Source: Bacteroidales bacterium
GTDB lineage: Bacteria > Bacteroidota > Bacteroidia > Bacteroidales > JAFGXI01
Direction: 5' to 3'
DNA length: 64,000 bases
Assembly: GCA_016936665.1 (NCBI GenBank)
Contig: JAFGXI010000010.1
Location: 72,611-136,610 of the forward strand
Shown: piece after piece, positions 7,959-36,551 of the stretch
Layout: each line of letters starts with the position of its first letter
How positions within the stretch are numbered: position 1 is the stretch's first letter
Position numbers and translations under genes: made by a program
Notes under the pieces: generated by a model
Database searches by the model: none
What the model saw: the letters and a program-made list of their open reading frames with translations, nothing else
Told to the model about the DNA's origin: nothing

Positions 7959-9179
7959 ATGGGTTTCGATACAGGGACAACAACATTCATGATTCTTAGT
8001 ACGAGTCTAGTTATGTTAATGACACCGGGTCTTGCTTTCTTTTATGGAGGTTTAGCTGGTAAACGAAATATTTTAGGTATCATGATGCAAACATTTGTAT
8101 CGTTAGGTATTACAACCGCCTTATGGATATCTTTTGGTTATTCGCTATGCTTTAGTGGTGGCGAAGGTGGCATTATTGGTAACTTCGACTGGGCTTTTTT
8201 AAGCGGAATTCCTTTTGACAATCCTTATTCCGGTGCTGATGGACAATATCCTGAGTTTATTTTTATTGCCTATCAAATGATGTTTGCGGTAATTACTCCT
8301 ACTCTGATAACAGGTGCTTTTGTTAACCGCGTTACTTTTAAATCTTACCTTATTTTCTTAGTAGCTTGGCAAATTTTTGTGTATTATCCATTCGTACACA
8401 TGATTTGGGGTGGCGGTTTGTTAGCCCAATGGGGTGTATTAGACTTCGCTGGTGGTATCGTAGTACATGCAACAGCTGGTTTCGCTGCTTTAGCATCCGT
8501 AATCTATGTCGGAAAACGAAGAGATACTCAATCGCCTCCAAATAGTATCCCATTGGTAGCGATTGGTACTGGTTTGCTTTGGTTTGGCTGGTATGGTTTT
8601 AATGCCGGTAGTGAGTTACGCGTCGATGCAATTACCACTACAGCGTTTTTAAACACAGACGTTGCCGCTTCTATTGCAGGAGTAACTTGGTTAATTATCG
8701 AATGGATTCGAGAAGGTCAACCTAAATTTGTAGGACTATTAACTGGTTTTGTTGCCGGTTTGGCAACCATTACGCCTGCAGCTGGTTTTGTACCCCTTTG
8801 GGCAGCTATGGTTATTGGGTTAGTTGCTGGTTCTTTATGCTATATTGCTGTTCAATTTAAAAATAAATTAGGCTGGGATGATGCTCTAGATGTATGGGGC
8901 GTTCACGGCATGGGAGGTGTTTTTGGAACCATTATGTTAGGTCTTTTTGCATCTACTGCTATCAATGGTCAGTCTGGATTACTTGAAGGAAACACTTCAT
9001 TCTTTTTTAAAGAGGTTGTATCTGTTATTGTTGCTTCGGCATACGCATTTATTTTCACCTATTTAATGCTTTACATTATCAACCTAGTTACTAAAGTTAA
9101 AGTTTCCGATATTGAAGAAGATTCTGGTTTAGACGCTTCATTACACGGAGAAAAAGCCTACGACGAAGGAGCATTATAA
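7959..9179 (+). CDS. amt: Ammonium transporter (Amt family)
   Basis: 406 aa, about 11 TM. Conserved blocks FFYGGL, DFAGGIVVHATAGF, GWYGFNAGS, WGVHGMGGVFG. Confidence 0.95.
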   Translation: MGFDTGTTTFMILSTSLVMLMTPGLAFFYGGLAGKRNILGIMMQTFVSLGITTALWISFGYSLCFSGGEGGIIGNFDWAFLSGIPFDNPYSGADGQYPEFIFIAYQMMFAVITPTLITGAFVNRVTFKSYLIFLVAWQIFVYYPFVHMIWGGGLLAQWGVLDFAGGIVVHATAGFAALASVIYVGKRRDTQSPPNSIPLVAIGTGLLWFGWYGFNAGSELRVDAITTTAFLNTDVAASIAGVTWLIIEWIREGQPKFVGLLTGFVAGLATITPAAGFVPLWAAMVIGLVAGSLCYIAVQFKNKLGWDDALDVWGVHGMGGVFGTIMLGLFASTAINGQSGLLEGNTSFFFKEVVSVIVASAYAFIFTYLMLYIINLVTKVKVSDIEEDSGLDASLHGEKAYDEGAL

Positions 9180-9200
9180 GTAAACATTGATTAATATTTT

Positions 9201-9232
9201 GGAGACTGTCTATAAAGACAGTCTCTTTTTTT
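9201..9232 (+). terminator. Rho-independent terminator after amt
   Basis: GAGACTGTC-tataaa-GACAGTCTC perfect 9-bp stem followed by TTTTTTT. Confidence 0.85.
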
Positions 9233-9290
9233 ATTCAAAAATTCTATTTGGAATGTTTCTAAATAAGAGGTAATTTTGAAAAAAAAACAC

Positions 9291-11273
9291 ATGAACAGTT
9301 CAAGCAAATATTCGAATGCACTTATAAACGAAACCAGTCCTTATCTACTTCAGCACGCCCAAAATCCGGTAAATTGGCTTCCTTATTCCGAAGTAGCATT
9401 CGAACAAGCACAAAAACATAACAAACTAATTTTATTCAGCATTGGTTATTCAGCCTGCCATTGGTGCCACGTAATGGAGCACGAAAGCTTCGAAAATGAG
9501 GCTATTGCCAAAATCATGAATCAGCATTTTATTTGTGTAAAAGTCGATCGAGAAGAAAGACCTGATGTAGATCAAATTTATATGAATGCTGTTCAACTTA
9601 TAACCGGTAGTGGAGGTTGGCCTTTAAACTGCTTTGCGCTGCCCGATGGAAGTCCGGTTTGGGGAGGTACTTACTTTAGGCCAAAAGATTGGGAAAACAT
9701 TTTAAACAGTTTAGCTCATGGCTATACAAGTAATCCTGTAAAATACATTCAAGCAGCAGAACAAATCAAACAAGGTATTGCTCAAACAGAAATGGTTATT
9801 CAAAAAAAAGAAATTGAAGCATTTTCTAAAGCAGAAATTGATGAAAAAATAATACATCTTATTACTCAATTCGATACCAATTATGGTGGATTTATTGGAC
9901 AACCCAAATTCCCATTGCCAGGACTTTGGAAAATGCTTTTAAATTTTGGATTAAAAAAACAAAGAAAAGACATTGTCGAGCATGTCTTATTTACCTTAAA
10001 AAAAATGGCTTATGGAGGCATTTACGATCAGATTGAAGGTGGTTTTGCTCGATATTCTGTCGATAATCGTTGGCATGTCCCTCATTTCGAAAAAATGTTA
10101 TACGACAATGCTCAGCTTATCGAGCTATTTGCACTGGCTTACCGAGTTGAGAATGAGCCTGTTTTTTTACGTGTTATCGAGCAAACGAAAAAGTGGTTAC
10201 ATAAAGATCTGAAAACAGAGGATCATCTTTTCCAATCTGCAATAGATGCCGATAGCCAAGGTACAGAAGGTTTATACTATTTATGGAGCGAAGAAGAGTT
10301 AATGAAAATGCCCGGAGATTCTTGGAAAGAAGTAAAATCGTATTTCAATATTGCAGCAGATCAGATATTCGAAAAACGCTATATTTTACAAGTACCTTCA
10401 ATGGATGAGCCAACATTGGCAATTCAATCAGTTATTGTCGAATTACTAAAAGAACGACAAACCAGAATAAAGCCTGAAACGGATTCTAAAGTCATCTGTT
10501 CTTGGAATGCTCAATTACTCAATGCATTATGCGAATCTTATAAAGCAAACCCCGATTTAAAAATCCGCTCTATGGCTTTGTTTTTGGGTAAAGCTATGAT
10601 AGAAAACTTTGTAAATAATAATGGCGAACTATTAAGAATAAATCATCCTAAAAAACAAATAAACGGTTATCTCGACGATTATGCTTTTACCATTCAGGCA
10701 TTAATCAATTTATACGAAATCAGTTTAGACGACTCGTGGTTAGAACAAGCTCTAAAATTGACAGAAACTACAATCGCTCTATTTTTCGACACAGAAAGTC
10801 ACATGTTTTTTTATACTGATAAAAACACCAAAATTATAATACGAAAAATGGAACTGTCCGATAATGTTATTCCATCTTCGAACGCGGTTATGGCTTCGAA
10901 TTTAAAAACACTTTCAATACTAACAGAAAACCCTTACTGGGCGTCGTTTTACAAGCAAATGTTAGCAAATATTTATAATGATGCAATGAACAATGTATAC
11001 TTTCATTATGAATGGGTAAATCTATTATTGTCGGAAGTTTCTAATTCCGAAGAACTTGTTGTTATAGGAAAACAAGCTGAAGAATTTTTAAAAAATATTT
11101 ATAAACAGTATCGACCTTATTTGAAAATAATAGCATCGACAGAGAAAAACGACGATTTGCCTTTACTTAAAAACCGATACAAAGCAGAGCAAACACTTAT
11201 TTATCATTGTATTAATAATGCATGTTCCCTACCTGTCGAATCGTTCGAAGAATGGGGAGTTAAGTATAAATAA
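9291..11273 (+). CDS. Thioredoxin-domain protein, DUF255 / YyaL (SSP411-like) family
   Basis: About 660 aa. N-terminal thioredoxin-like domain with the hallmark [14 protein letters not shown] motif, then a long helical (alpha/alpha-barrel-like) region. The ATG at 9291 is preferred over the TTG at 9276. Confidence 0.85.
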
Positions 11274-11360
11274 TGTCCGTTATTGAATAAATTAACAATT
11301 ATTAAAATGCACTATCGGGTATAAAATATGAAAGCACTCGAAAAACTCAATTCAATTACT

Positions 11361-11368
11361 TACATTTG
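11361..11368 (+). promoter_or_regulatory. -7 promoter box (TAnnTTTG) for secA
   Basis: TACATTTG, 27 nt upstream of the ATG at 11395. Confidence 0.35.
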
Positions 11369-11394
11369 TGTTTCAAATTTTTTCAACGGAAATC

Positions 11395-14300
11395 ATGAGT
11401 GTAATCAATAAAATACTTGGAAAATTCATCGGAAACAAATCCGATCGAGATATTAAATCTATTTCACCAATTGTTGATGAAATTAAAAAAGAGTACGCCA
11501 AAATTAGTCAATTATCCAACGACGATTTGCGCGCAAAAACCATTGAATTAAAACAACAGATTCAAGATTTTATTAAAGATGAGAACAATGAAATCCAACG
11601 ATTAAAAGACAGCATCGTAGAGCAAAAACTAGATATAGATGCTAGAGAAGACGTTTATAAAAGCATTGATAAAATAGAAGAAAGCATCGACGAAAAAATC
11701 GAAGATATTCTCAATCAAATATTACCTACTGCATTTTCAATTGTAAAAGAAACGGCTAAACGATTTGCAGAAAACGACTACATTGAAGTAACAGCTAATG
11801 AATTCGATCGAAATTTAGCAGCAACCCGCTCGTCGGTAGAAATAAATGGCGACAAAGCAAAATACCATTCTTCTTGGTTTGCAGGAGGTACCGAAATTCG
11901 TTGGGACATGATTCATTACGATGTTCAGTTAATTGGAGGAATCGTATTGCATCAAGGCAAAATATCGGAAATGGCAACGGGAGAGGGAAAAACCTTAGTG
12001 GCAACCTTACCTGTTTTCTTAAATGCCCTTCCCGGCCGTGGCGTTCACTTGGTTACTGTAAACGATTATTTAGCGAAAAGAGACGCCGAGTGGATGGGCC
12101 CTTTATTCGAGTTTCATGGTTTAAGTGTCGATTGTATCGATAAACACCAACCCAATTCCGATCCAAGAAGAAAAGCATACAATGCCGATATCACTTACGG
12201 AACTAACAACGAATTTGGCTTCGACTACTTGAGAGATAACATGGCATTGAGTCCTGAAGATTTGGTTCAACGTAAACACAATTACGCCATTGTCGATGAG
12301 GTTGACTCTGTATTAATCGACGATGCAAGAACACCATTAATCATTTCCGGACCAACCCCAAAAGGCGATCATCATGAATTTGACGAACTCAAACCAAGAA
12401 TCGAAAGGTTAGTAAAATTTCAACGCGATCTTACTTCTCAAATCCTCATCGACGCTAAAAGATTAATAAAAGAAGGCAACGAAAAAGAAGGCGGTAAATT
12501 ATTACTTAGAACATACAAAGGTTTACCAAAAAACAAAGCTTTAATTAAGTTTTTGAGCGAAGAAGGTATGAAAGCTCTTTTGCTTAAAACGGAAAACTTT
12601 TATATGCAAAACAATAACAAAGACATGCCTATCATTACCGATGAATTGTACTTTGTAATTGATGAAAAAAATAATCAAATCGAATTAACCGATAAAGGGA
12701 TCGACTTAATAACCGATTCTGGCGAAGATCCTGAATTCTTCGTTTTACCTAACATCGGTGAAAAAATAGCCGACATCGAAAAACAAATTTCAGACCCCAA
12801 GGAAAAATTAACAGCAAAAGATGCTTTATTGAGCGATTACAGTGTAAAAACAGAACGCGTACATACAGTTAATCAATTGCTAAAAGCCTATACACTTTTC
12901 GAAAAAGAAGTCGAGTATGTGGTTATCGACAATAAAGTTAAAATTGTTGATGAGCAAACCGGCCGTATCATGGAGGGGCGTCGTTACTCAGATGGACTGC
13001 ATCAAGCCATAGAGGCTAAAGAAAACGTAAAAATTGAAGCCGCAACTCAAACATACGCAACTGTTACCTTACAGAATTACTTCCGTATGTATCATAAGCT
13101 TTCCGGTATGACAGGTACAGCTGAAACAGAAGCCGGAGAATTGTGGGATATTTATAAGTTGGATGTTGTGGTTATTCCAACCAATAGACCCATTTCAAGA
13201 AACGATTGGGAAGATTTCATTTACAAAACGAAAAGAGAAAAATACAATGCCGTTATTGACGATATTGTTAAACTTATAGAAAAAGGGAGACCCGTATTAG
13301 TAGGTACAACAACTGTAGAAATTTCGGAACTTTTAAGCCGAATGCTCAAATTACGAGGCATCAAACATAATGTATTAAATGCAAAGCTTCACAGTCGAGA
13401 GGCCGACATTGTGGCCGAAGCAGGTAAAACAGGCGCAGTAACCATTGCCACAAATATGGCTGGTCGTGGTACAGACATCAAGCTAAGTAGCGATGTTAAA
13501 AAGGCCGGCGGTTTAGCAATTATTGGTACAGAAAGGCACGAGTCTCGACGAGTTGACAGACAGCTACGTGGCCGTTCCGGCCGTCAAGGCGACCCCGGAT
13601 CTTCGCAGTTCTACGTTTCTTTAGAAGACGACTTAATGCGTTTATTTGGATCCGACAGAATAGCAAAGATGATGGATAGATTGGGCTTAAAAGAAGGGGA
13701 AGTCATTCAGCACTCCATGATTACTAAATCTATCGAAAGAGCTCAAAAGAAAGTCGAAGAAAACAATTTTGGAATTCGTAAACGTCTGCTCGAATACGAC
13801 GACGTGATGAATGCCCAAAGAGAAGTCATATATAAAAAACGTAAACATGCTCTTTTAGGTGAACGTATTGGCGTTGACATTGCCAACATGCTGTACGATG
13901 TGTGCGAAAATTTAGTGCACGAGCACCATGGTCATAGCGAATTCGAAGAATTTGAAATAGAGCTTATTCGTGTATTATCTGTTGAACCACCGGTTGACGA
14001 AGCGGAATATAAAGCCATTGGTACCGAAAAGTTAGTCGATAAAGTTTACGATGAAACTATAGAAATTTATAAACGAAAAACAAAAGCAATAGCAGAGCAA
14101 GCATGGCCAGTAATTAAAGATGTATTCGAAAATCAACCCGGCTACGAAAATATTGTTGTCCCGATTAGCGACGGAAACCGAGTATTCCAAGTTAACACGA
14201 ACATGCAAAAAGCTTATGATACTGAAGGAGAAGAAGTGATTACTTCTTTCCAAAAAATCATAATGTTAGCCACTATTGATGATATTTGGAAAGAACATCT

Positions 14301-15311: not shown

Positions 15312-15348
15312 AAAAAAGAGAGGTTAATATTTTAACCTCTCTTTTTTT
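15312..15348. terminator. Bidirectional Rho-independent terminator between convergent genes
   Basis: AAAAAAGAGAGGTTAA-tatt-TTAACCTCTCTTTTTTT. A-run and T-run flank an 11-bp stem. Overlaps the stop codon of the minus-strand crotonase gene. Confidence 0.85.
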
Positions 15349-16108
15349 ATGCATTTTTCCCAAAATTCATAATCCGTTCTTTCCACTCCTTGGTTTGGGA
15401 TAAATATGCAAAGTTGTCTGCTGCATACAACTTTTGCGACTCAATATCTTTTGCAAGCAAAGTATTTAATGTTCTTTTTGTGTAGAAAAGCGCCATGTCT
15501 GTACCTTCTAATATCTGTTGTGCTATTTTTACTGCTTCTTGCATTAAATCGTCTTTAGCAACCACTCGATTCACCAAACCGATACGATAGGCTTCATGAG
15601 CATCGACCATTCTTCCTGTAAATAATAAATCTCTGGTGTAATTTAAACCGATTAAATTACTTAAATATAAAGTACAAGTTACCGGAAGAATAGCGCCTAG
15701 CTTTACTGCAGGGAAGCCCATTTTTGCAGTATCGGCAGCAATACGAAAATCGGTCGAAGCAGCATATCCTAAGCCTCCTCCAAGAGCATAGCCATTAATA
15801 GCCGTTATAACAGGTTTAGTAAAATTGAATAAAACCTCAGAACTGCCTTCCAACAACAAAGCGTAATCTCTGGCATCTTCGATAGAATTAAAATTTTGAA
15901 GAATTTTAAGATCAACCCCCGAAGAAAATGACTTATCACCTGCTCCCGTTAAAATCACAATTCGGATAGCTTCATCCTTTTCTAACGATTTAAGCGTTTT
16001 AGTAAACTCTCCAAGCAGTTCTCTACTAAAAGAATTATGAACCTCTGGTCGGTTTAGTGTTAAAATGGTAATACCATCTTTTCTTACATCTTTTTGAATT
16101 AAACTCAT
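15347..16108 (-). CDS. Crotonase-fold (enoyl-CoA hydratase/isomerase superfamily) protein lacking both canonical catalytic glutamates
   Basis: 253 aa. Oxyanion-hole elements FSSGVDL and NGYALGGG are present. By-eye alignment to rat ECH (GGGCELAM / FGQPEILLG) gives GGGLGYAA / MGFPAVKLG, i.e. Glu144->Gly114 and Glu164->Ala134. Confidence 0.8.
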   Translation of the reverse strand: [253 protein letters not shown]

Positions 16109-16119
16109 GGTTACAATTT

Positions 16120-17403
16120 TTATATTTTATCAATAATCGACTTCATTGCCGATGTTACTGTTTTCAACTCTTGATAGGTAATAATAAAAGGAGGCATAGT
16201 GTAAAATAAACGCCCAAATGGCCTTAACCAAACGCCCATATTCACCAGTTCTTCTTGTATCCAAACCATATCTACAGGCTCCTTTAGCTCAACAACACCT
16301 ATAGCCCCAAGCACACGAACATCAACCACTTTACTTTGGGTTTTCAATGCCATTAAATCTTCTCTTAATTGATATTCAATATTTTGAACATTATCTTGCC
16401 AAGAGCTACTTAATAACAAATCGATGCTTGCATTTGCAACAGAACAAGCCAAAGGATTGGCCATAAACGTGGGTCCATGCATAAAAACGCCGGGATTTCC
16501 TTTAGAAATTGTATTTGCAACTTTTGATGTTGTGAGTGTTGCTGCAAAACTTAAGTAGCCACCTGTTAATGCTTTTCCTAAGCACATAATATCGGGAGAA
16601 ACATCGGCATATTCACATGCAAACAAACGACCTGTACGTCCAAAACCGGTCGCAATTTCATCTGCTATTAACAAGATATCGTAGTGTTGACAAAGTCTGT
16701 AAGCTTCTCTTAAAAACTGAGGATGATAAAAGCGCATGCCTCCGGCTCCTTGAACAATAGGCTCAAGAATGAATGCTGCTATTTCGTTATGTCTTTGTTC
16801 TATCGTTCGGGATAGTTCATCTATTGCCGAGCCGCACCATGGTTCGTCGAAAAGAACTTGAGGTTCTTCGATAAAAATTTGTTCAGCCAATCTATTATTA
16901 AATATGGAATGCATCCCAGTTACAGGGTCGCAAACCGACATGGCGTGCCAAGTGTCGCCATGGTAGCCTCTTTTAATAGTTAAAAATTTATTTTTATTAA
17001 CATTAGCTTTCGAATGCTGATATTGCAAAGCCATTTTCATGGCCACTTCTACAGCAACGCTACCTGAGTCCGAGAAAAAAACTTTTTCTAATCCTTGAGG
17101 TGTTAACTCTACCAGTTTTTTTGCTAATTCAATGGCGGGTTGATGCGTTAACCCTCCAAACATTACATGTGCCATTTGATCGGTCTGGTCTTTAATGGCT
17201 TTATTTAGTTGAGGATGATTATAACCGTGCACAACCGCCCACCACGACGACATACCATCGATAACAGTTCTATCATCTTCTAAAGTGAGGGTTACCCCTT
17301 TTGCTGATTTAACAGGATAAACAGGTAATGGTTCAGACATCGAAGTGTACGGATGCCAAATGTGCCCCCTATCGAATGATAACAAATCCTCAATTGCTTT
17401 CAT
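16120..17403 (-). CDS. bioA: Adenosylmethionine-8-amino-7-oxononanoate aminotransferase (DAPA synthase)
   Basis: 427 aa. Collinear by eye with recalled E. coli BioA: [78 protein letters not shown] (PLP Lys), [23 protein letters not shown]. Confidence 0.92.
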
Positions 17404-19257
17404 TTACCAGCGATTATCAGAAACTAAATAACCATGACGACGAACTGTTAAAATATTTTCAAAAGTATCATCAACACCTTCAATTTTGATCAAGTATAAA
17501 CTTTTAACAATGTTTTCAGCAACAGTATCGACATCTAATATTTTAGCCTGATTGATCTGTTGCATGGCTATAAAAGCTTGTTTTGGATTCAATTCATTTG
17601 TCATTCCTGTAGCGACAACTCCCGGCATATAATAAATCATTCTTAACCCTTTACTAAAAGCCTCCCAAGAGGCACTTGCAACAAAGCCATGCAATGCCTT
17701 TTTACTCGAAACATAAGCCGAAGAGCCGGCAAACTGAGCATCTTCTGCTGCAGAGCCTAACCAAACCACCGAAGAGTTGATACTATCGAACAAGTTCTGA
17801 TAAATGCTAACTAAAGATTGATAATTAATTTGATGCACCTGTTTATACATTTCAGGTTGAATTTCAGAACCAGAGATCAATCCCCCACTAATGCCTGGTG
17901 TAAAAATCAAGTGGTCTATAGAAGTATATGCTTTTTTTAAGGATTCAATAAAATGATGGATAGAATTGAAATCCATCAAATTCAATTCAAAACCTTCAGC
18001 ACTAGGGAATTTTGAATTTATTTCTTCTGCTTTATTTTCGTTTCTATATGTGAAAATGATATTTGCTTCGCGCTTTTTTAGGGCTTCGAGAATAGATAAT
18101 CCAATTCCTCCTGACGCTCCTACAACAAGTACATTTTTTCCTTTGAGGTCGCCTTCAATTTGTAAATTTAATTTGGCCTTTTTTGGTACTATATATGAGA
18201 ACGCTCCATATTTACCTCCTACTCCGGCTGTTGCACTAAGAATTTTCTTACCTTCAGTTAATGTGCCAGATTGATTTAGAAGCGATAAACTTAGTAAAAC
18301 CGTAGAGCCCGAAACATTACCAAATTGTCTTTGTGCTTCGAGATAGAGTTTTTCTTTCGGCAGATTCAAAGTCTTAGCCACATCAATTAAAATGGCATTT
18401 CCTGTTTGATGTGGTACCAACAAATCGATTTCATCGACAGACCATTTTGTCTTTTCTAATATCGACTTAGTAGATTTTATTAAATTGATGATGGCGCGAT
18501 CTTTAATGACGCTTTCTCCCATGTATAAATTCCACGATTTATCTACCCCTACAAAGTCGATCATATGAAGGTCTTGAAAGTTCTCGATAGCTACTATGCC
18601 TTCTTTTTCTTCACTTTCAACTTTCGATAGTATTACAGCTCCTGCCCCATCGCCAAAGGTTACAAACGAAACAAACTTGCTTTTCTCAGTTAAAAAACTA
18701 GACATCGTTTCGGTGTGAGCCACAACCACATGTTTTGCCGAGTTGTGATCTTTTAAATACTCCAAAGCACGTTCAAGGTTCAAATTAAAACCAGAACAAC
18801 CGGATGCTAAAGTAAAGGTCGGTGTTAAATTGTTGCGATCGACAAAATAGGTTTTTATAGTCGCGGCTATCCCTGGTGCTTGCTCGTGTGGCGATACCGT
18901 AGAAACAAACCATGCATCAATTAATTTAGGATCGATATTCGCATCGTTAAAAGCATTGTTTATTGCTCTAACTGCTAGTTCTGTAGAATTTTCTGTTCTT
19001 AAAAAATGTTTTTTCTTTGGAGGAAATGGGACTACCGTGTTTCGATATTTAAATCCCATCTTATATTCGGCAAAGTAATCGAATGGAGAAACTCCTGGAT
19101 GCCTCTCTGAAAACTGCTGATAATTTTTGCTCGATAATACCTTTTGTTCATCAAAGCCACTTAATAGACCTTTTTGTGTAGCTTCAAAAATATCTTCATT
19201 TGTAATCTGATAACGACCAACAGCATGGCCGATACCGGAAAATATATAATTAATCAT
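17404..19257 (-). CDS. Fusion protein: N-terminal 3-oxoacyl-ACP synthase III (FabH/KASIII-like) + C-terminal short-chain dehydrogenase/reductase
   Basis: KASIII triad visible, numbered from the track's 629-aa ORF: Cys166 in LASGCSGF, His295 in LLVPHQTGN, Asn326 in QFGNVSGST. SDR half has a Rossmann GASGGIG (392-398) and catalytic Y527-x3-K531 (AYVSSK). The start at 19257 (MINYIFSG...) is preferred; an alternative ATG lies at 19293. The stop abuts the bioA ATG. Confidence 0.85.
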   Translation of the reverse strand: MINYIFSGIGHAVGRYQITNEDIFEATQKGLLSGFDEQKVLSSKNYQQFSERHPGVSPFDYFAEYKMGFKYRNTVVPFPPKKKHFLRTENSTELAVRAINNAFNDANIDPKLIDAWFVSTVSPHEQAPGIAATIKTYFVDRNNLTPTFTLASGCSGFNLNLERALEYLKDHNSAKHVVVAHTETMSSFLTEKSKFVSFVTFGDGAGAVILSKVESEEKEGIVAIENFQDLHMIDFVGVDKSWNLYMGESVIKDRAIINLIKSTKSILEKTKWSVDEIDLLVPHQTGNAILIDVAKTLNLPKEKLYLEAQRQFGNVSGSTVLLSLSLLNQSGTLTEGKKILSATAGVGGKYGAFSYIVPKKAKLNLQIEGDLKGKNVLVVGASGGIGLSILEALKKREANIIFTYRNENKAEEINSKFPSAEGFELNLMDFNSIHHFIESLKKAYTSIDHLIFTPGISGGLISGSEIQPEMYKQVHQINYQSLVSIYQNLFDSINSSVVWLGSAAEDAQFAGSSAYVSSKKALHGFVASASWEAFSKGLRMIYYMPGVVATGMTNELNPKQAFIAMQQINQAKILDVDTVAENIVKSLYLIKIEGVDDTFENILTVRRHGYLVSDNRW

Positions 19258-20356
19258 TTTTAAATCCTTTAAACTGTCCTGTTCTTGTATCAATAATCCA
19301 GTTTTGTTTAAATAAATATTTGGCAGGCATAGCCATATTTAAACCAAATTGGCTTAGGGTAATGTTGGACTCATAAATTACTTTTTGTTTATCCGAAATG
19401 CTTACGTTTATAGTTGCCGGCACAACAAAAGGAATCATTTTTTCAGAAAATCGTTTAATCGTATCAACAGCAACAGTCCCATTATTAGCATTCTGTAACT
19501 TAAGTACGATAGGATAAAAAGATTTTTTTGCATCCTCACTAAATCCATAACTCTCATTAAAGAAAACAATATTATAGGCACCTAAATTGAATGGTTCGAC
19601 TTGTAATACTTTCCGAAAATGTTTATAAACGACTTTACCAAAGAACAGTGCTTCGTATGCTTTCTCTTTTTTATCTAGTTCCTCAAGCATTACTTTTAGT
19701 GCATCTTCTTTAGGAAGCTTATCGTTCATACCAGAGATCAATCTAAACTTTCGCTTTCTAATTTTTGTTAATGTTTTGGCGGCATCTTTAGCCATTTCCT
19801 CGTAGGTTTTATTACGAATCACTTTATTAACAATCGGGATTTTTTTACTTACACTATCAACTGTAACCATTTTAAATGATGTTTCGGACTCTTCGATAAT
19901 CATTTTTTTAAGTGTTAGTTCTTCGAAATAAGGCTCTTGATCTGAAGCTTCGAGCCATTTATCTTGCGGATAAACAAATGATTGATCTGAGCCAAATGTT
20001 GATGTTAACCATTGAAAGTTTTCTGGCTTAATTTTTTTAATATCGCCGGTAATTTTATACAGATTCGAAGTGTCTACCTTAGAAACGGTAGAGATAATAA
20101 CATTCTCTATTTCCCACTTGGTAGATGTTTCGATAATTTCAGGTTTAATTTCCAGAAATTGTTCAGAAAATTCTGAGAAAGGGCCAACTAGTTCCGTTTT
20201 TTCAACGGCATCGATAGTAATAACTAATTGCTGATAGGGTAACGCATATATAAGGGAAGGCTCCTTGTATTGTTTGCCATCGGAGAGTTTTTGGACTTTT
20301 ACAGATTGGCAAGCTGCTAATATCAATATAAAGAAAAAAACGAATAGAGATTTCAT
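19250..20356 (-). CDS. Hypothetical lipoprotein (possibly DUF4831-like)
   Basis: 368 aa. Signal peptide plus lipobox ILILAACQS. LIYALPYQQLVITIDAVEK...GPFSEFSEQFL is reminiscent of DUF4831 lipoproteins (recall only). The stop overlaps the next gene's start (ATGATTAA). Confidence 0.6.
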   Translation of the reverse strand: MKSLFVFFFILILAACQSVKVQKLSDGKQYKEPSLIYALPYQQLVITIDAVEKTELVGPFSEFSEQFLEIKPEIIETSTKWEIENVIISTVSKVDTSNLYKITGDIKKIKPENFQWLTSTFGSDQSFVYPQDKWLEASDQEPYFEELTLKKMIIEESETSFKMVTVDSVSKKIPIVNKVIRNKTYEEMAKDAAKTLTKIRKRKFRLISGMNDKLPKEDALKVMLEELDKKEKAYEALFFGKVVYKHFRKVLQVEPFNLGAYNIVFFNESYGFSEDAKKSFYPIVLKLQNANNGTVAVDTIKRFSEKMIPFVVPATINVSISDKQKVIYESNITLSQFGLNMAMPAKYLFKQNWIIDTRTGQFKGFKND

Positions 20357-30224: not shown

Positions 30225-30971
30225 TTAGTTTACGGATGGTATTTTTAAACTTACCTCGCCGTGCATATAAGTATTTACGCGTGCATTTTCTACACGAACC
30301 TCTAAACATCCGGAGGCATCTACACCTAATATAACCCCAAGAAAAACGTTATTTTCAGAGTTAAAAAACTCAGTAAGTTCGCCCAATCTATACAAGTATT
30401 TATTGTACAACAGATGAATTTCACTTTTTCTATTCAATAGGCTAAAGACCTCATTAACAATCTCTTCTCCAATTTGTCCAATATCAAAGGCTTCTCCTGT
30501 TATTTGTTTCATCGATACTGGATTAGGGAGCCCTTCCGAAAATTCTGTTTGATTCACATTTAAACCGATTCCTATTATTGTTTTTTCAATTTTATTACCA
30601 ACAAAAGTATTCTCGATTAATATGCCGGCTACTTTTTTATTTCCTACATAAATATCGTTCGGCCATTTAATAGAAATTTGAATAATGTTTTTTCTCGATA
30701 ACACATTGAATACGGCTATCGCAGCAAGTTCAGATATTAAATTAGATTGCTCTATCGGAACAGAAACAGCACGAATGCCAATAGATATTAATAAATTTTT
30801 CCCTTTTTCGCTCTCCCAAATTCGAGCAAACTGACCTCTGCCAGATTCCTGAACTTCGCTACGAACATAAATTTTTTCGAGCATTGGATTGTCGTTTAAA
30901 ATCTGCTTTGCTTTATCATTCGTTGAATTTAGCGTTTCGAAAAAATACTTTTCGATATATCTTCCTTGCAT
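30225..30971 (-). CDS. birA: Biotin-[acetyl-CoA-carboxylase] ligase, group I (no N-terminal HTH domain)
   Basis: 248 aa. GRGQFARIWES (GRGRxGRxW-type motif), KWPNDIYVGNKKVAGILIE. The sequence starts directly in the catalytic domain. Confidence 0.88.
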   Translation of the reverse strand: MQGRYIEKYFFETLNSTNDKAKQILNDNPMLEKIYVRSEVQESGRGQFARIWESEKGKNLLISIGIRAVSVPIEQSNLISELAAIAVFNVLSRKNIIQISIKWPNDIYVGNKKVAGILIENTFVGNKIEKTIIGIGLNVNQTEFSEGLPNPVSMKQITGEAFDIGQIGEEIVNEVFSLLNRKSEIHLLYNKYLYRLGELTEFFNSENNVFLGVILGVDASGCLEVRVENARVNTYMHGEVSLKIPSVN

Positions 30972-31100: not shown

Positions 31101-34100
31101 ATGAGACAGTTAACTCTAAAAACAATTTTATTCCTAAGCTTGTTAGTTACAAGTTTAATAGGATTTTCTCAGTTTAACCTCGAAAATACCTTTACATCGA
31201 CCTCGTCTAACACTCAGTTTGGTAAATCGGTAGACCGTTATTACGATTATGCGATTGTTGGTGCTCCAAACGATATGGATATGACTAACGAAGCAGGGGC
31301 AGCGTACATCTATCAATACGATGGCACTTCTTGGTCCGTTGTAAAGAAAATATTTTCTGCTTCCCCTTTTAATCATGCACACTTTGGTACTTCAGTTGCC
31401 ATTTATGGTGATTTTGCTTTTGTTGGAGCTCCTGAAGAAGATTCAGGAAATGGTGCTGTATATATTTATAATCGCAACGAAGGCGGGTATAACAATTGGG
31501 GGCATTTTTATACTTTAACAGGGAATTCAGCTGCACAATTTGGGTATTCCATTGCTGTTGATAATGAATACTTGATTATTGGAGAGCCCTATACTTCATC
31601 TGGAGGAATAGCTTATATATTCTATCAAAACGAAAGTGGCCCGCATCACTGGGGCCTTGTTAAAACAATAGCCCCTACAAGCACGCAAGCAGGGGCAAAT
31701 TTTGGAGCTTCTGTAAGCTTATACAACAATACAGCAGTTGTTGGAGCTAGTAATTACAATAGCACTGGAGCTGCCTTTATTTTTGAAAGGGATCAGAATG
31801 GAGCTGATCAATGGGGTCAGTGGACCGTAAAATTTGCAAACATCCCTAGTTCAAGCGAGTATTTTGGAAGTGCTGTAGATTTATCCGATACCATTCTTGT
31901 TGTCGGAGCATATAATAGCAACGCAGGGTTATCAGGCTGTGGTGCTGCTTATGTTTTCTACAAAGATAATGGAAGTCCCGGCGACTGGGGACAAGTAAAG
32001 AAATTAACATCTTCACACTCGGCTAACAACGCTTACTTTGGCACTTCTGTTTCTATTTCCAGTGAAAATATTTTAGTTGGAGCGCCCGGCTATCAATCTT
32101 ATGCTGGTGAAGCTGTGTTATTTAAAATGAACAATGGTGGCGATAATAACTGGGGCGAGATTTCTAACTTTCAATCACCCAGTCACTATTCATCCGAATA
32201 CTTTGGGCAAAGTATAAACTTATTCAACGACATATTTTTAGTGGGGGCAACTTCTAGCCCAAGTGCCGATGGTGCTGTGTACTGCTATAAATCTACCACG
32301 AATACAGGCTGTATGTTTGCTCAATATAAAATGGATGGCGATTTAAATGAAGTCTCAGCAAACAACAACGGTACTATAAATGGGCCTACATCTGATAACG
32401 ACCGTTTTGGTGCACCCGGAAGCGCACTGCATTTCGATGGCACTGATGATTTTGGTTACATTACAACGGGAATGAATAACATGAGCCAAGGCGCAGTCTC
32501 AATTTGGGCATACGTAGACGATCCAACTTCTTTTCCTGTTTTTACAAGGCCGGGGACGAATGCAGGAGATATTGATCTACAATTAATATTAAATGGTAAT
32601 ACTCAAGAGTTTACCTTAGCTAATACTACACTAAATAACACTGATAATTTATCGGTTAACAACTGGCATCATTTTGTTTGTTCTTGGGATGGCGCTAGTA
32701 TGTTTTTGTATATCGATGGAGTGCTAAGAAACGAAATGGTTAATGCTTTAGGAACCATTAACACAACTGGCTCCGATTTTGTATTGGGTAATGATAACTC
32801 TGGAATCTATTTCGCCAATGGTAGAATGGATGATTTAAAATTCTTCGATTGCCCCTTAACAGAACCGGAAGTCGAAGAAATATATACCGAAAATGGATGG
32901 GGACAAACTTACTCATGCATAAAAAATCATTATCCATTCGACGGCAACGCCGATGATTACAGCATCTCAATGCAAAATGGAATGACTAACAATGCCATTG
33001 CCGGTAATGACAGATTCGACAACGGCGTTGGAGCATTATTTTTCGAAAGCGCAAATGTAAGCTTGCCAGACGGTGTTATATCAGAGATACCGGAAGGGAG
33101 TGTTTCTGTTTGGATTAAACCTAATACGAGCTTATCCTTTTATTATTTCCCAATTATAGAATCGGCCACTGCCGCTACACCAGAATTACCTTATTTTAAG
33201 TTGTATATTGAAGAATATGAATTAAAAGCAAATATTTACGACCTTAATACTCCCACAGAAAATGAAATTTATTCTTCTAACTATCTTTTAAATGGAACTG
33301 ACTGGCATCAAGTTGGTGTATCTTGGGATGCAGATAGTATTAAATTTTTTATAGATGGTAAAATAAGAGAAAGTATCTACAACAGTTTTGGAGCATACAT
33401 TCCTCTTAACTCCGCACCAACAATTATTGGAGAAGACTATGTGCCTAATTGGGCCGAGGGTTATTTCGACGATTTAAAGATTTTCACCTGTACATTAACT
33501 GCCGATCAAATAGATGAAATGTATCATGATGGAGGTTATGGTTACCCGGACTTTGTCGATCAATGCTTTAACTTTAACGATAACACTTATCCTTCGAACT
33601 GGGAATTGTACAATACTACCAATGCCTCTATCGAAAATGGTAAATTTATGGTTTACAACGATGGTACTGACCAGACTGCAGAATTAGGATGCAATGGCCA
33701 ATTACCTTTAAATACAGACTCTTTAATTATTGAGTGGCAATCTCAAACCATTTCTACCAATCCTTTCCATTTTACTGGGGTTGGCTTAAAACTAGCAGAT
33801 ACTTCATTGTTCTTTGTACATATGCAAAACCCTACTTATGACTTTGGTGCTATTGCAGTTGGTGGTAATGAAGACGTACCTTTATTCTTAGCAGCAGATT
33901 CTATTTCAATAAATACCGGCATTTATAACAATAAGTTAATTTGCACCAATAGTACCATGTACTTTGTTTCGCAAAAAGCTACCAATGCCAATGTTGTTCC
34001 TTTTGAAATTGAATTTAATCCATTTACTATAGACCCAACATATTCTTTAGAAAAAATAAGACAAATTTCTCTAATACAGCAAGCAGGACCACAAGCTTCC

Positions 34101-36551
34101 TACAATTGGATAGACAACGTATGCATTAAAATCATCGAAGCTAGTGCTACTGAAAGTTGCGAGTTGGCATTTTATAAGTTTAATGCCAATATCTCCGATC
34201 ATAGTGGCAATGGAAATCATTTACAAGTTGAAAACGGGCCATTTAATTACGCAACCAATCGTTTCAATATTCCATACGGAGCCCTTAGCATTAATGGTAC
34301 AAACCAAGAATTTTATACTATAGTCGAGGCGCCTTCATTGTATGAAGATTGCTCTGTAAGCGCTTGGATTAAACCTAACGACTATGACAGCAATGATACT
34401 GCAATGATTTTTGTAAATTACCACGAGAGTGATCCCGGAAGTTCGTTTATGGTTGGAATTTTCGAAGCGACTGGCAAACTCTTTTACGGTCATTACAATA
34501 ACGACGGCTCATTATTTGCCTCTATGTCCGACAATCCTATTCCAACCAATGTTTGGACACACGTTGTTGTGGTTAGAGATGATGCCAACTCCAGATACAC
34601 ATTGTATTTAAATAACGATTCTATTAATTCGTTTATTTATCCCAATCCACCAACTCAAGTTGCATCAGTATCTGCATTTGCAGTATCTTCTTCCGATCCC
34701 GGTTATTGCTTTTATGGGGATGTTGATGATATTATTGTTTCGCAATGTATAATGAATGAAAACACTGTAGATTCTTTATACCATGTTAATGGATGGCCTT
34801 CTGCAATGTGCGACAATATGGTTATAGCAATTACTAAAAATCCGGCATCATGTGGTGAAGATAATGGTTCAGCTATGGTTACTGTTTCAGGAGGATCCGG
34901 ATATTATAATGTTTCTTGGAGCAATGGCGACGAAGGCTATTATGCTGTAGATCTTTCTTCAGGGGTACATTCTGTAAATGTTACCGATAGTATTTATGGA
35001 TGTATGATTAATCAATTTTTCACAATAAATAATACAGACGCTCCAGTAATTCAGCTAACACCAAGCAATTTATCTTGTTTTAACAATCATACAGGTTCTG
35101 TAAGCATGAATATAACCGGAGGAACTTCTCCCTATAATATTGAGTGGTCTAATGGTCAGACAACACAAAATATTGGGGGCTTAACAGCAGGAAATTATTC
35201 AGTAACCATTGTAGACCAAAATGGTTGTGTTAGCTACGACGATGTGCTATTAACCCAACCAAACGCAATAAGCGCAAGCTTCAGCGTTACCAATTCTAGT
35301 TGTGGCAATAGCGATGGAGAAATTACTATCACCGTAGGAGGAGGAACACCAAACTATACGTATAACTGGTCAAATTCAGGAACTACAGCAACCATCTCAG
35401 GCCTTCCTGCTTCAAACTACACTGTAACAGTAAGCGATGCTCATGGATGTACTAAACTATTTACATCAGGCGTAAGCGATAGTGGCTCACCTATTGCTAT
35501 TGTAGACTCAATTCAATCGGCAAGATGTGGCGAAAACGGAAGCATATACATTGGCGTTTCAGGAGGTTCCGGCTCATACATTTATGAGTGGTCGAATGCA
35601 GAAACGACAGAAGATATTGAAGGCTTTGAGCCGGGAGAATATTGGGTAACCATTACCGATGGAACATGCCATACAATGTTAAGTGCAGAAATACCATATA
35701 TTATTCCAGAAAATCAAGAAATCTGTGTTGTAACTGTGGATCAAAACACCGCTAAGAATTTAGTTGTTTGGGAAAAAGTTGAAGCCAGCGATGGTGTCGA
35801 CCATTATAATGTTTATAGAGAAGGTTTCGTAGCAGACGATTATCAGCTTGTAGGTACAGTGGATGCTATCGACATGAGTGAATTCTCAGACCCAATAGCC
35901 AGCCCATTTACAAGATCTTGGAAATATAAAATATCTTCGGAAGATGCCTGTGGCAACGAATCCGCATTAAGCGATGCACACAAAACCATTCACCTTTCTA
36001 TCAGTCTCGGTTTAGGCGGTGCTATAAACTTAATGTGGGACGATTACGATGGATTCGAATATTATACATATTACATTAATAGACACACAACAGCCAATGG
36101 TTGGGAAGTTATCGATTCGCTTCCAACATATTTACATTCCTATTCCGATACCCCACCTTCCTTATATGGATTATGGTACACCGTTACAGTAAATGCTCCC
36201 GGACAATGTGTTCCTACCTCAGATTCAAAAGCCAATGGTGGCCCTTATTATCAATCAACTTCAAATATAGAAGATGAAGGAGCAATCGATTTGGAAGTAA
36301 ATAATAAATATGAAGATCAGCAATTGATTGTTTTTCCAAACCCAAATAACGGACAGTTTATTATAGAATTTAATGAATTCGAAACGGGTAATTACGAAAT
36401 TATAGATCTTTCCGGCAAAGTAATAGCTCAAGAAAACTTTAATAATATTAAACAAATCAAGCATTTAGATCAACTAGAAAAAGGAATATATTTAGTTAAC
36501 ATTCAAGTTGACTCCAAATACACAAAATCTATAAAAATTGTTGTTCAATAA
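31101..36551 (+). CDS. Giant T9SS-secreted surface protein: 7-blade FG-GAP propeller, 3 LamG (concanavalin-like) domains, 4 SprB repeats, type-A Por C-terminal sorting domain
   Basis: 1816 aa. Signal peptide. Seven FG..V...........VGAP....G..Y.. units (aa 38-397). LamG-like modules ending RMDDLKFF, YFDDLKIF, DVDDIIVS (aa ~405-598, 606-810, 1020-1232). Four C..(D/N)G.......GG...Y.Y.WSNG........L..G.Y.V.V.D..GC repeats (aa 1237-1530). C-terminal VFPNPNNGQFIIEF...GIYLVNIQ...IKIVVQ. Confidence 0.85.
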   Translation: MRQLTLKTILFLSLLVTSLIGFSQFNLENTFTSTSSNTQFGKSVDRYYDYAIVGAPNDMDMTNEAGAAYIYQYDGTSWSVVKKIFSASPFNHAHFGTSVAIYGDFAFVGAPEEDSGNGAVYIYNRNEGGYNNWGHFYTLTGNSAAQFGYSIAVDNEYLIIGEPYTSSGGIAYIFYQNESGPHHWGLVKTIAPTSTQAGANFGASVSLYNNTAVVGASNYNSTGAAFIFERDQNGADQWGQWTVKFANIPSSSEYFGSAVDLSDTILVVGAYNSNAGLSGCGAAYVFYKDNGSPGDWGQVKKLTSSHSANNAYFGTSVSISSENILVGAPGYQSYAGEAVLFKMNNGGDNNWGEISNFQSPSHYSSEYFGQSINLFNDIFLVGATSSPSADGAVYCYKSTTNTGCMFAQYKMDGDLNEVSANNNGTINGPTSDNDRFGAPGSALHFDGTDDFGYITTGMNNMSQGAVSIWAYVDDPTSFPVFTRPGTNAGDIDLQLILNGNTQEFTLANTTLNNTDNLSVNNWHHFVCSWDGASMFLYIDGVLRNEMVNALGTINTTGSDFVLGNDNSGIYFANGRMDDLKFFDCPLTEPEVEEIYTENGWGQTYSCIKNHYPFDGNADDYSISMQNGMTNNAIAGNDRFDNGVGALFFESANVSLPDGVISEIPEGSVSVWIKPNTSLSFYYFPIIESATAATPELPYFKLYIEEYELKANIYDLNTPTENEIYSSNYLLNGTDWHQVGVSWDADSIKFFIDGKIRESIYNSFGAYIPLNSAPTIIGEDYVPNWAEGYFDDLKIFTCTLTADQIDEMYHDGGYGYPDFVDQCFNFNDNTYPSNWELYNTTNASIENGKFMVYNDGTDQTAELGCNGQLPLNTDSLIIEWQSQTISTNPFHFTGVGLKLADTSLFFVHMQNPTYDFGAIAVGGNEDVPLFLAADSISINTGIYNNKLICTNSTMYFVSQKATNANVVPFEIEFNPFTIDPTYSLEKIRQISLIQQAGPQASYNWIDNVCIKIIEASATESCELAFYKFNANISDHSGNGNHLQVENGPFNYATNRFNIPYGALSINGTNQEFYTIVEAPSLYEDCSVSAWIKPNDYDSNDTAMIFVNYHESDPGSSFMVGIFEATGKLFYGHYNNDGSLFASMSDNPIPTNVWTHVVVVRDDANSRYTLYLNNDSINSFIYPNPPTQVASVSAFAVSSSDPGYCFYGDVDDIIVSQCIMNENTVDSLYHVNGWPSAMCDNMVIAITKNPASCGEDNGSAMVTVSGGSGYYNVSWSNGDEGYYAVDLSSGVHSVNVTDSIYGCMINQFFTINNTDAPVIQLTPSNLSCFNNHTGSVSMNITGGTSPYNIEWSNGQTTQNIGGLTAGNYSVTIVDQNGCVSYDDVLLTQPNAISASFSVTNSSCGNSDGEITITVGGGTPNYTYNWSNSGTTATISGLPASNYTVTVSDAHGCTKLFTSGVSDSGSPIAIVDSIQSARCGENGSIYIGVSGGSGSYIYEWSNAETTEDIEGFEPGEYWVTITDGTCHTMLSAEIPYIIPENQEICVVTVDQNTAKNLVVWEKVEASDGVDHYNVYREGFVADDYQLVGTVDAIDMSEFSDPIASPFTRSWKYKISSEDACGNESALSDAHKTIHLSISLGLGGAINLMWDDYDGFEYYTYYINRHTTANGWEVIDSLPTYLHSYSDTPPSLYGLWYTVTVNAPGQCVPTSDSKANGGPYYQSTSNIEDEGAIDLEVNNKYEDQQLIVFPNPNNGQFIIEFNEFETGNYEIIDLSGKVIAQENFNNIKQIKHLDQLEKGIYLVNIQVDSKYTKSIKIVVQ
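31212..32291 (+). repeat. Seven tandem FG-GAP-like blade repeats (protein level) within the giant CDS
   Basis: Blades begin FGKSV, FGTSV, FGYSI, FGASV, FGSAV, FGTSV, FGQSI. Each is followed by hydrophobic-VGAP/VGAS and G-A-(A/V)-Y-(I/V)-(F/Y). Confidence 0.75.
34809..35690 (+). repeat. Four tandem SprB-type repeats (protein level) within the giant CDS
   Basis: CGEDNGSAMVTVSGGSGYYNVSWSNG..., CFNNHTGSVSMNITGGTSPYNIEWSNG..., CGNSDGEITITVGGGTPNYTYNWSNS..., CGENGSIYIGVSGGSGSYIYEWSNA... Confidence 0.75.

Follow-up and report, generated by a model that had tools for sequence, protein, structure and literature searches.

A KASIII-type ketosynthase joined to a short-chain reductase in a duplicated, crotonase-linked protein family of uncultured Bacteroidales

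The fusion gene and its two domains

A single polypeptide joining a FabH-like ketosynthase (KS) of the KASIII type to a classical short-chain dehydrogenase/reductase (SDR) is encoded in a 64,000-nucleotide stretch of a Bacteroidales genome (assembly GCA_016936665.1, contig JAFGXI010000010.1, positions 72,611 to 136,610), referred to here as the window. The gene is an uninterrupted 617-codon open reading frame (ORF) at 17404-19257 of the minus strand, with its ATG at 19257 and its stop at 17404-17406. An alternative upstream TTG start at 19293 would lengthen it, but homologues share the N-terminus M-x-N-Y-I-F-S-G, which favours the ATG. The gene and its parts are as follows:

17404..19257, minus strand: KASIII-SDR fusion gene ("KSKR"), 617 aa plus stop, B-type orthologue (from the ORF, Pfam, homologues and a neighbour-joining tree)
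18190..19257, minus strand: KASIII (FabH-like) condensing domain, residues 1-356 (from Pfam, PDB matches, alignment and superposition of an AlphaFold2 model)
19060..19179, minus strand: family-specific insertion of ~40 residues (~27-66) within the N-terminal portion of the KASIII fold, with no counterpart in E. coli FabH in the alignment
18139..18189, minus strand: interdomain linker of 17 residues (357-373, VPKKAKLNLQIEGDLKG), variable among homologues, of low pLDDT and with in-frame DNA
17407..18138, minus strand: FabG-like SDR ketoreductase domain, residues 374-617 (from Pfam, NCBIfam, PDB matches and a codon check)

This architecture had been put forward in an original prediction made from the letters of the window without database searches, and it stands: there is one ORF, Pfam places domains of both kinds on it, and more than 120 homologues are fused in the same way. 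The main domains are ACP_syn_III (residues 150-224, 45.8 bits), ACP_syn_III_C (residues 267-353, 63.6 bits) and adh_short (residues 374-560, 97.8 bits, E 7e-28), all above their gathering cut-offs, the last of which bears out the assignment of the C-terminal half to the SDRs. Pfam found no KASI/II-type ketosynthase (PF00109/PF02801), acyltransferase (AT) or acyl carrier protein (ACP) domain in the fusion. The catalytic motifs quoted in the prediction are all present, and their codons were confirmed: LASGCSGF with Cys154 (nt 18796-18798), LLVPHQTGN with His283 (nt 18409-18411) and QFGNVSGST with Asn314 (nt 18316-18318) in the KS half, GASGGIG (residues 380-386, nt 18100-18120) and YVSSK (nt 17701-17715, with Tyr515 at 17713-17715 and Lys519 at 17701-17703) in the SDR half. 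Asn478 and Ser502 (codon at nt 17752-17754), aligned to the catalytic Asn and Ser of FabG, complete the SDR tetrad. The Cys154/His283/Asn314 triad, properly aligned, is invariant in all 133 family members, and each half is predicted to be catalytically active.

The linker, KKAKLNLQIEGDLKGK, occupies residues about 357-373 (nt 18139-18189), where the junction had been estimated to lie (nt 18150-18180, correct for the minus strand); the DNA at nt ~18135-18190 is in frame and contains only two A6 runs. In an AlphaFold2 (AF2) model built on a 12-sequence alignment (pLDDT 86, pTM 0.88) the two-domain arrangement is confidently predicted, the linker being the main low-confidence stretch (pLDDT falls to 60 at residues 361-370). 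A Foldseek search of the PDB returned no solved structure spanning both domains and matched the FabH half only (TM 0.92 when normalised to the target, 2ebd, and at most 0.48 when normalised to the query).

The best PDB match of the KS half is FabH of Aquifex (2ebd, 104.1 bits, E 7e-29), on which the modelled half superposes with a TM of 0.92. It matches BioZ (9j6e, 55.8 bits, E 4e-14) and PqsD (53.8 bits, E 1.5e-13) less well, and neither OleA nor DarB is among its PDB matches at E<=1e-5. Of the clades that the prediction had named for comparison, FabH is thus the closest to the KS half, ahead of BioZ and PqsD (104 vs 56 and 54 bits), and the Pfam, PDB and Foldseek matches agree with the earlier claim that this half lies outside the type I clade, being of KASIII and not KASI/II type. 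It nevertheless scores well below the curated FabH cut-offs (NF006829, 135.3 vs 249 bits; TIGR00747, 118.9 vs 292.1 bits). PF08392 (FAE1_CUT1_RppA), the 3-ketoacyl-CoA synthase (KCS) family, matches residues 79-219 at 33.9 bits (cut-off 27), more weakly than the KASIII models, and PDB matches to KCS are only weak (E ~1e-6). The ~40-residue insertion is conserved within the family and predicted to be helical in the AF2 model.

To compare individual positions, we mapped the 133 family members onto E. coli FabH (identical to 1hn9), with the 105 nearest standalone KASIII representatives as a comparison set. Phe87, which limits the primer pocket of FabH, is replaced by Ala in 131 of the 133 members (Ala127 in the window protein). 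Arg249 and Lys214 form the ACP-docking patch, and the part they play in docking was reportedly established for the E. coli enzyme by Zhang and coworkers in 2001. The Arg249 position holds Ala or Val in every family member (Ala288 in the window protein) vs Arg or Lys in 90 of the 105 standalone enzymes; the Lys214 position holds Asp/Glu or Ser/Asn, depending on the paralogue (B and A, respectively, as defined below), vs Lys or Arg in 75/105. As judged from the alignment, the docking residues of FabH are lost in the family. Two further positions also differ, Trp32 (Phe or Met in the family vs Trp in 99/105) and Arg151 (Phe vs Arg in 85/105). BioZ carries Leu (Leu90) at the Phe87 position and is inactivated by L90F, while the determinants of its glutaryl-CoA specificity are structural and not single residues (PMC12625853).

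The best PDB matches of the SDR half are FabG structures (E 4e-17), and here too the scores lie far below the curated cut-offs (TIGR01830, 75 vs 297.75 bits; NF009466, 83.6 vs 222 bits). The window protein has the Gly-rich dinucleotide motif, of pattern GxxGxxG across the family, together with the Asn478/Ser502/Tyr515/Lys519 tetrad, and the domain is probably NADPH-dependent. Glu505, His523, Glu532 and a C-terminal beta-hairpin are specific to the family.

A small family with two paralogues

A word-indexed search of 5.8 billion proteins retrieved a protein identical (100%) to the window fusion from a Bacteroidales metagenome-assembled genome (MAG) in NCBI with a 207-kb contig (P0001, named "SDR family NAD(P)-dependent oxidoreductase") and, among the matches listed, 119 further relatives of 603-672 aa (all but one 603-631) with 44-71% identity and 98-100% query coverage. 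These relatives come from NCBI, JGI, ENA and Logan assemblies. More than 120 full-length homologues read through the KS-SDR junction as a single protein, both domains remaining in frame while the linker differs in length and sequence. An exhaustive phmmer scan of 1.84 billion representatives at 50% identity yielded just 33 proteins at E<=1e-30. About 17 of them represent clusters of full-length fusions (613-632 aa, identity as low as 32%), and the remainder are contig-end fragments. The next matches are ordinary standalone FabH proteins at ~105 bits, and by this drop in score the family is small and discrete. Contig-end fragments aside, no close standalone relative of either half was found among those 1.84 billion representatives: every full-length family member found carries the KS-SDR fusion.

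The spread of the fusion, which the prediction had proposed to survey, is correspondingly narrow. All 78 family loci from GTDB species representatives belong to uncultured Bacteroidales/Bacteroidota MAGs (Salinivirgaceae, Marinilabiliales, rumen bins and a few evidently mis-binned names), and to these were added 9 annotated metagenome places and 80 metagenome loci. The latter were obtained with a clade alignment as query, a scan with a single protein having returned no loci. We found no description of a KASIII-SDR fusion family in the literature on FabH-FabG fusions, Bacteroidales, BioZ/pimeloyl synthesis or KS, ketoreductase (KR) and crotonase (KS/KR/ECH) systems, and databases give its members generic names only. 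The family is uncharacterised, combining familiar catalytic domains in a fused, duplicated and crotonase-linked architecture.

With E. coli FabH as the root, a neighbour-joining tree based on the KS-domain columns resolves two clades within the family: A, formed of 56 first-position copies and 6 singles, and B, formed of 59 second-position copies and 12 singles. The window protein nests inside the B clade (mean identity 0.47 to B and 0.40 to A), and no A copy was found in the 64-kb window. The KS triad is invariant in both clades, whereas the reductase Ser-Tyr-Lys set is intact in 56/56 A copies vs only 10/59 tandem B copies. The Tyr of the B copies is replaced by Trp (28) or Phe (17), the Lys by Asn (14), and the Ser is often replaced too. 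They retain the Gly motif, and Glu505, His523 and Glu532 are invariant among them. The altered B reductase would be a pseudo-reductase or else have taken on a new function. Such copies can be seen, for example, at nt 10001-11785 of locus L045 and nt 8001-9866 of locus L001. In the window protein and 25 of the 26 members of its own clade (58-100% identity), the Ser-Tyr-Lys set is kept.

We examined the genes around the fusion by ORF calling and clustering over 86 loci, and again in a non-redundant set of 112 loci. The dominant order is crotonase (~255 aa), KSKR-A (~619 aa), an optional aldehyde dehydrogenase (ALDH, ~416 aa) and KSKR-B (~603-628 aa). Two tandem copies occur in 63/86 loci and a crotonase lies within 3 genes in 47/86; in the non-redundant set, at least 2 copies are present in 59 loci, a crotonase in 55, an ALDH in 12 and a FabK-like gene in 9. 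An operon-linkage analysis singles out two candidate functional partners, the crotonase in 38 loci and the ALDH in 10. In L001, just 2 nt separate the A and B genes. Where the ~416-aa ALDH-family gene lies between them (L006, L008, L014, L015, L047, L049, L053, L064, L081), it matches generic aldehyde dehydrogenases only.

Both catalytic glutamates (GGGxELA, PE) are present in nearly every family-linked crotonase, and these enzymes should therefore be true hydratases/dehydratases. In 6 loci (L013, L016, L037, L029, L032, L033) a LpxL/FabK-like operon, made up of a true crotonase, a LpxL-family acyltransferase and a NMO/FabK-like gene, lies just downstream of B on the opposite strand and is convergent on the A-B pair. 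The best NCBIfam match of the FabK-like protein is FabK itself (160 bits vs a cut-off of 453). Taken together, the A-B pair and the convergent operon make up a full set of KS, KR, dehydratase (DH) and enoyl reductase (ER) functions plus an acyltransferase. No ACP (PP-binding) gene was seen at the annotated family loci. Some other frequent neighbours, namely an HutI-like amidohydrolase and a cyclophilin (Pfam-annotated), as well as a Tricorn-like protease and a Tex-like protein (identified by reading the sequence only), were considered and rejected as partners; recurrent neighbours of this sort occur only in related loci and appear to reflect lineage synteny.

The operon in the window

The fusion gene of the window is the second of four tightly packed minus-strand genes, in the order DUF4831 lipoprotein, fusion, bioA, crotonase-fold gene. 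The remaining features of this operon are:

19250..20356, minus strand: DUF4831 lipoprotein gene (Pfam DUF4831, E 2e-33; the translation shows an N-terminal signal peptide with a Cys)
16120..17403, minus strand: bioA, adenosylmethionine-8-amino-7-oxononanoate transaminase (NF005940, 684 bits, cut-off 625; TIGR00508, 601 bits, cut-off 405)
15347..16108, minus strand: crotonase-fold protein in which neither catalytic glutamate is kept (GGGLGYA, FPAV), encoded by the final gene of the operon
15312..15347, no strand assigned: 16-bp bidirectional terminator hairpin closing the operon (perfect hairpin with A- and T-run flanks, between convergent genes)

The stop of the DUF4831 gene overlaps the fusion ATG by 8 nt (ATGATTAA), and the fusion is predicted to be translationally coupled to it. 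This pair recurs across the clade of the window protein with different flanks (L010, L091, L092, L093, L108). On the other side, the bioA ATG directly follows the fusion TAA (TAAATG junction). The pair formed by bioA and the Glu-less crotonase recurs as well, without the fusion, in other Bacteroidales contigs (L088, L089). Since each pair occurs independently, the window operon is a juxtaposition of the two. Beside the fusion in 112 other non-redundant loci no BioA orthologue was found, just one weak aminotransferase match of 27% identity.

The loss of both catalytic glutamates is invariant in the subfamily of the window crotonase, which has an invariant Cys145, Asp120 and Arg122 of its own. 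We considered this protein as the dehydratase of the family and rejected it, as both glutamates are missing and it belongs to a different subfamily from the family-linked hydratases. Its subfamily is also present in MAGs labelled Zixibacteria and Calditrichaceae.

No Rfam riboswitch or leader was detected between 14.5 and 23.5 kb, the sole match, below threshold, being the terminator hairpin, and promoter-like matches are about as numerous as expected from shuffled sequence. No ACP, fatty-acid synthesis (FAS) or other bio genes were found in the rest of the 64-kb window, the remainder being housekeeping. The sole other cofactor-related gene there, a BPL_LplA_LipB-family (biotin/lipoate protein ligase) gene at 30225-30971 on the minus strand, is ~11 kb from bioA.

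A possible chain-extension cassette and its alternatives

Condensation followed by reduction on one polypeptide is well supported by the domains and catalytic residues described above. The KASIII domain (Cys154/His283/Asn314) would join an acyl primer to a malonyl thioester by decarboxylative Claisen condensation, after which the SDR fused to it (Ser502/Tyr515/Lys519) would reduce the 3-keto product to a 3-hydroxyacyl thioester in a NAD(P)H-dependent reaction. Because the fusion is conserved and both halves are predicted to be competent, the natural reading is that a beta-keto thioester passes directly to its own reductase, as suggested in the original prediction. The further suggestion made there, of specialised rather than bulk lipid synthesis, fits the evidence too: the protein fails every curated FabH and FabG cut-off, and the family is tiny, restricted to one lineage and provided with a crotonase partner of its own. 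Special-purpose synthesis is probably what it suits.

We favour, with a probability of about 0.5, a dedicated KS + KR chain-extension cassette that probably works on CoA thioesters, independently of ACP, and of which the window copy would be a self-sufficient B-type member. The ancestral operon would have consisted of a crotonase acting as dehydratase, KSKR-A with an always intact reductase and KSKR-B with an often degenerate one, and the cassette would perform about two rounds of chain extension in most genomes, the reductase of A probably handling the product of B as well. Where A is present, its reductase could thus serve B, whose own reductase would decay to a scaffold; this would be easiest if the intermediates were diffusible CoA esters or if A and B formed a complex. 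Where B stands alone, as in the window, it would have to remain bifunctional, and with its complete reductase the window copy would be self-sufficient for one condensation and one reduction. The primer would be larger than acetyl because Ala replaces Phe87. Primer and extender are probably CoA esters, a suggestion drawn from the absent docking residues, a dehydratase partner of the crotonase type and not of the FabZ/FabA type, the lack of a linked ACP and the weak KCS-family signal. The LpxL-like and FabK-like partners (6 loci) and the conserved pairing with the DUF4831 lipoprotein give a hint of an envelope-lipid destination.

Several observations weigh against the cassette as we describe it. 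The equivalents of Trp32 and Arg151, which sandwich the CoA adenine in FabH, are changed in the family, and the loss of FabH-type docking residues may be compatible with a different mode of ACP binding. Crotonase-fold enzymes can act on ACP-bound substrates in the beta-branching of polyketide synthases (PKS), and LpxL-family acyltransferases and FabK normally use acyl-ACP. An enoyl reductase is absent from most family operons, and neither a true hydratase nor an A copy lies within the 64 kb of the window. Some B copies with a dead reductase stand alone at their locus (e.g. L002/L043), so that there the reductase of A could serve B only from an unlinked gene. Finally, all family sources are uncultured MAGs.

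A bolder form of this proposal, which we would venture only tentatively, is a natural, ACP-independent, malonyl-CoA-driven system for acyl-CoA elongation in bacteria, a soluble analogue of the KCS/KCR elongase of eukaryotes, composed of two KS-KR paralogues and a crotonase, with the B reductase as a pseudo-enzyme scaffold and an envelope lipid or metabolite of Bacteroidales as its product.

Of the alternatives, the one that survives best, though we think it somewhat doubtful, is an ACP-dependent priming module of the type II FAS (FAS-II) kind, in which the fusion would elongate long or branched acyl-CoA with malonyl-ACP and deliver 3-hydroxyacyl-ACP to envelope lipids (lipid A, amino-lipids) with the help of the housekeeping ACP. 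The best sequence and structure matches of the two halves are indeed FabH and FabG, FabK-like and LpxL-like neighbours are found in 6-9 loci, and the DUF4831 lipoprotein is a conserved partner. A lpxC-fabZ fusion and a lpxA-like gene lie 2-4 kb from the KS-SDR fusion in L092. The Ala at the Phe87 position would open the primer pocket, and FabH of M. tuberculosis, which accepts long chains, presumably also lacks a Phe there. Against such a module, the Arg249 and Lys214 equivalents are non-basic in 133/133 family members vs 86% and 71% basic in standalone KASIII enzymes, the partner dehydratase is of the crotonase and not the hot-dog (FabZ/FabA) kind, there is no linked ACP, and the scores fall far under the FabH and FabG cut-offs (135 vs 249 and 75 vs 298).

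A BioZ-like route to pimelate would explain the position of the window fusion, whose stop abuts the bioA start in one operon: the KS would condense glutaryl-CoA with a malonyl thioester, the reductase would give 3-hydroxypimeloyl thioester, and a tandem pair would lead from malonyl through glutaryl to pimeloyl. Two KS copies and a dehydratase fit the two rounds needed for pimelate, and the Ala in place of Phe87 parallels Leu90 of BioZ, where L90F inactivates (PMC12625853). As bioA adjoins the fusion in none of the 112 other non-redundant loci, a role in biotin synthesis is unlikely; besides, the bioA-crotonase and DUF4831-fusion pairs each exist alone elsewhere, the bit scores put the KS half nearer FabH (104) than BioZ (56), and the 64 kb contain no further bio genes. 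We regard this route as improbable for the window and have rejected a biotin/BioZ role as the general function of the family, the adjacency being peculiar to the window and the two gene pairs independent.

About as improbable is a reading in which the SDR of the window protein is a mere scaffold, without catalytic activity, and the 3-keto product is released. The window protein is of B type, with the B-specific His523 and Glu532, and 49/59 tandem B copies lack the Ser-Tyr-Lys set, with Trp or Phe in place of Tyr. It nonetheless keeps the Asn478-Ser502-Tyr515-Lys519 tetrad and the Gly motif, as do 25/26 members of its clade. An assembly or frameshift artefact joining two genes, for which the two A6 runs near the junction and the metagenomic origin of the genome might speak, is effectively refuted by the same continuous architecture, across a linker that varies, in more than 120 independently assembled proteins (44-71% identity; NCBI, JGI, ENA, Logan), and by the lack of close standalone relatives of either half besides contig-end fragments.

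By its sequence, the fusion falls outside the curated FabH and FabG families, BioZ and the type I KS-KR proteins. It shares with FabH the thiolase fold, the order of the Cys-His-Asn triad and the best PDB sequence match, but its KS is only ~23-32% identical and below the cut-offs, has the ~40-residue insertion and changed docking and pocket residues, and is always fused to an SDR in full-length members. The Rossmann fold, Gly-rich motif, Asn-Ser-Tyr-Lys tetrad and size (~245 aa) of the SDR half recall FabG, from which it differs by Glu505, His523, Glu532 and the C-terminal hairpin as well as by the frequent loss of the tetrad in B paralogues. BioZ, the 3-oxopimeloyl-ACP synthase of alpha-proteobacteria, is likewise of KASIII type with an enlarged primer pocket, and the window fusion adjoins a biotin gene; however, BioZ is standalone and ACP-dependent, the KS half is farther from it than from FabH, and the bioA adjacency is limited to one locus.

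The elongases of eukaryotes and plants (KCS/FAE1 + KCR + HCD + ECR) offer a parallel in their chemistry, with malonyl-CoA condensation, reduction by an SDR and dehydration on CoA esters as proposed here; the FAE1_CUT1_RppA match lies above its cut-off, though below the KASIII models in strength. Their enzymes are separate and membrane-bound, whereas the fusion is apparently soluble, would use a crotonase as dehydratase and would act on CoA esters only if our reading holds. Type I FAS and PKS also couple condensation and ketoreduction covalently, but with a KASI/II-clade KS (PF00109/PF02801) and with AT and ACP domains, none of which is found in the fusion. Some PKS modules hold inactive KR domains, comparable with the degenerate reductase of B copies. 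In the human mitochondrial HSD17B8/CBR4 heterotetramer, one SDR subunit carries the reductase activity while the other is mainly structural; by analogy this could be a model for an A/B complex, although the human enzyme has no fused ketosynthase.

Bacterial fatty-acid and polyketide chemistry is usually divided between dissociated, ACP-dependent type II enzymes and giant type I assembly lines. Beside these, a minimal fusion of KASIII and ketoreductase would be a third and very compact way of building chains, especially if paired with a crotonase on CoA esters, and the A/B pair would be a natural case of a catalytic domain decaying to a probable scaffold after duplication. If this is true, the fusion could be used as it stands in engineered, ACP-independent pathways that make 3-hydroxy acids and medium-chain products and are driven by malonyl-CoA, something so far achieved with artificial enzyme combinations such as NphT7-based pathways. 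The hosts are abundant uncultured Bacteroidales of sediments, digesters and the rumen, of which the family would mark a metabolite or lipid.

Some minor observations concern other genes. Directly downstream of B in L030, L039 and L082 lies a gene for a ~728-aa protein with a CxxxCxxC motif that resembles KamA-type radical-SAM aminomutases, and upstream of A in L016, L017 and L075 are genes for an apparent carboxyltransferase subunit, an HMG-CoA-lyase-like protein and a second, AUH-like crotonase, a combination suggestive of leucine/isovaleryl-CoA metabolism; both sets were identified by reading the sequence only. In the window itself, a 1816-aa ORF lies at 31101-36551 on the plus strand.

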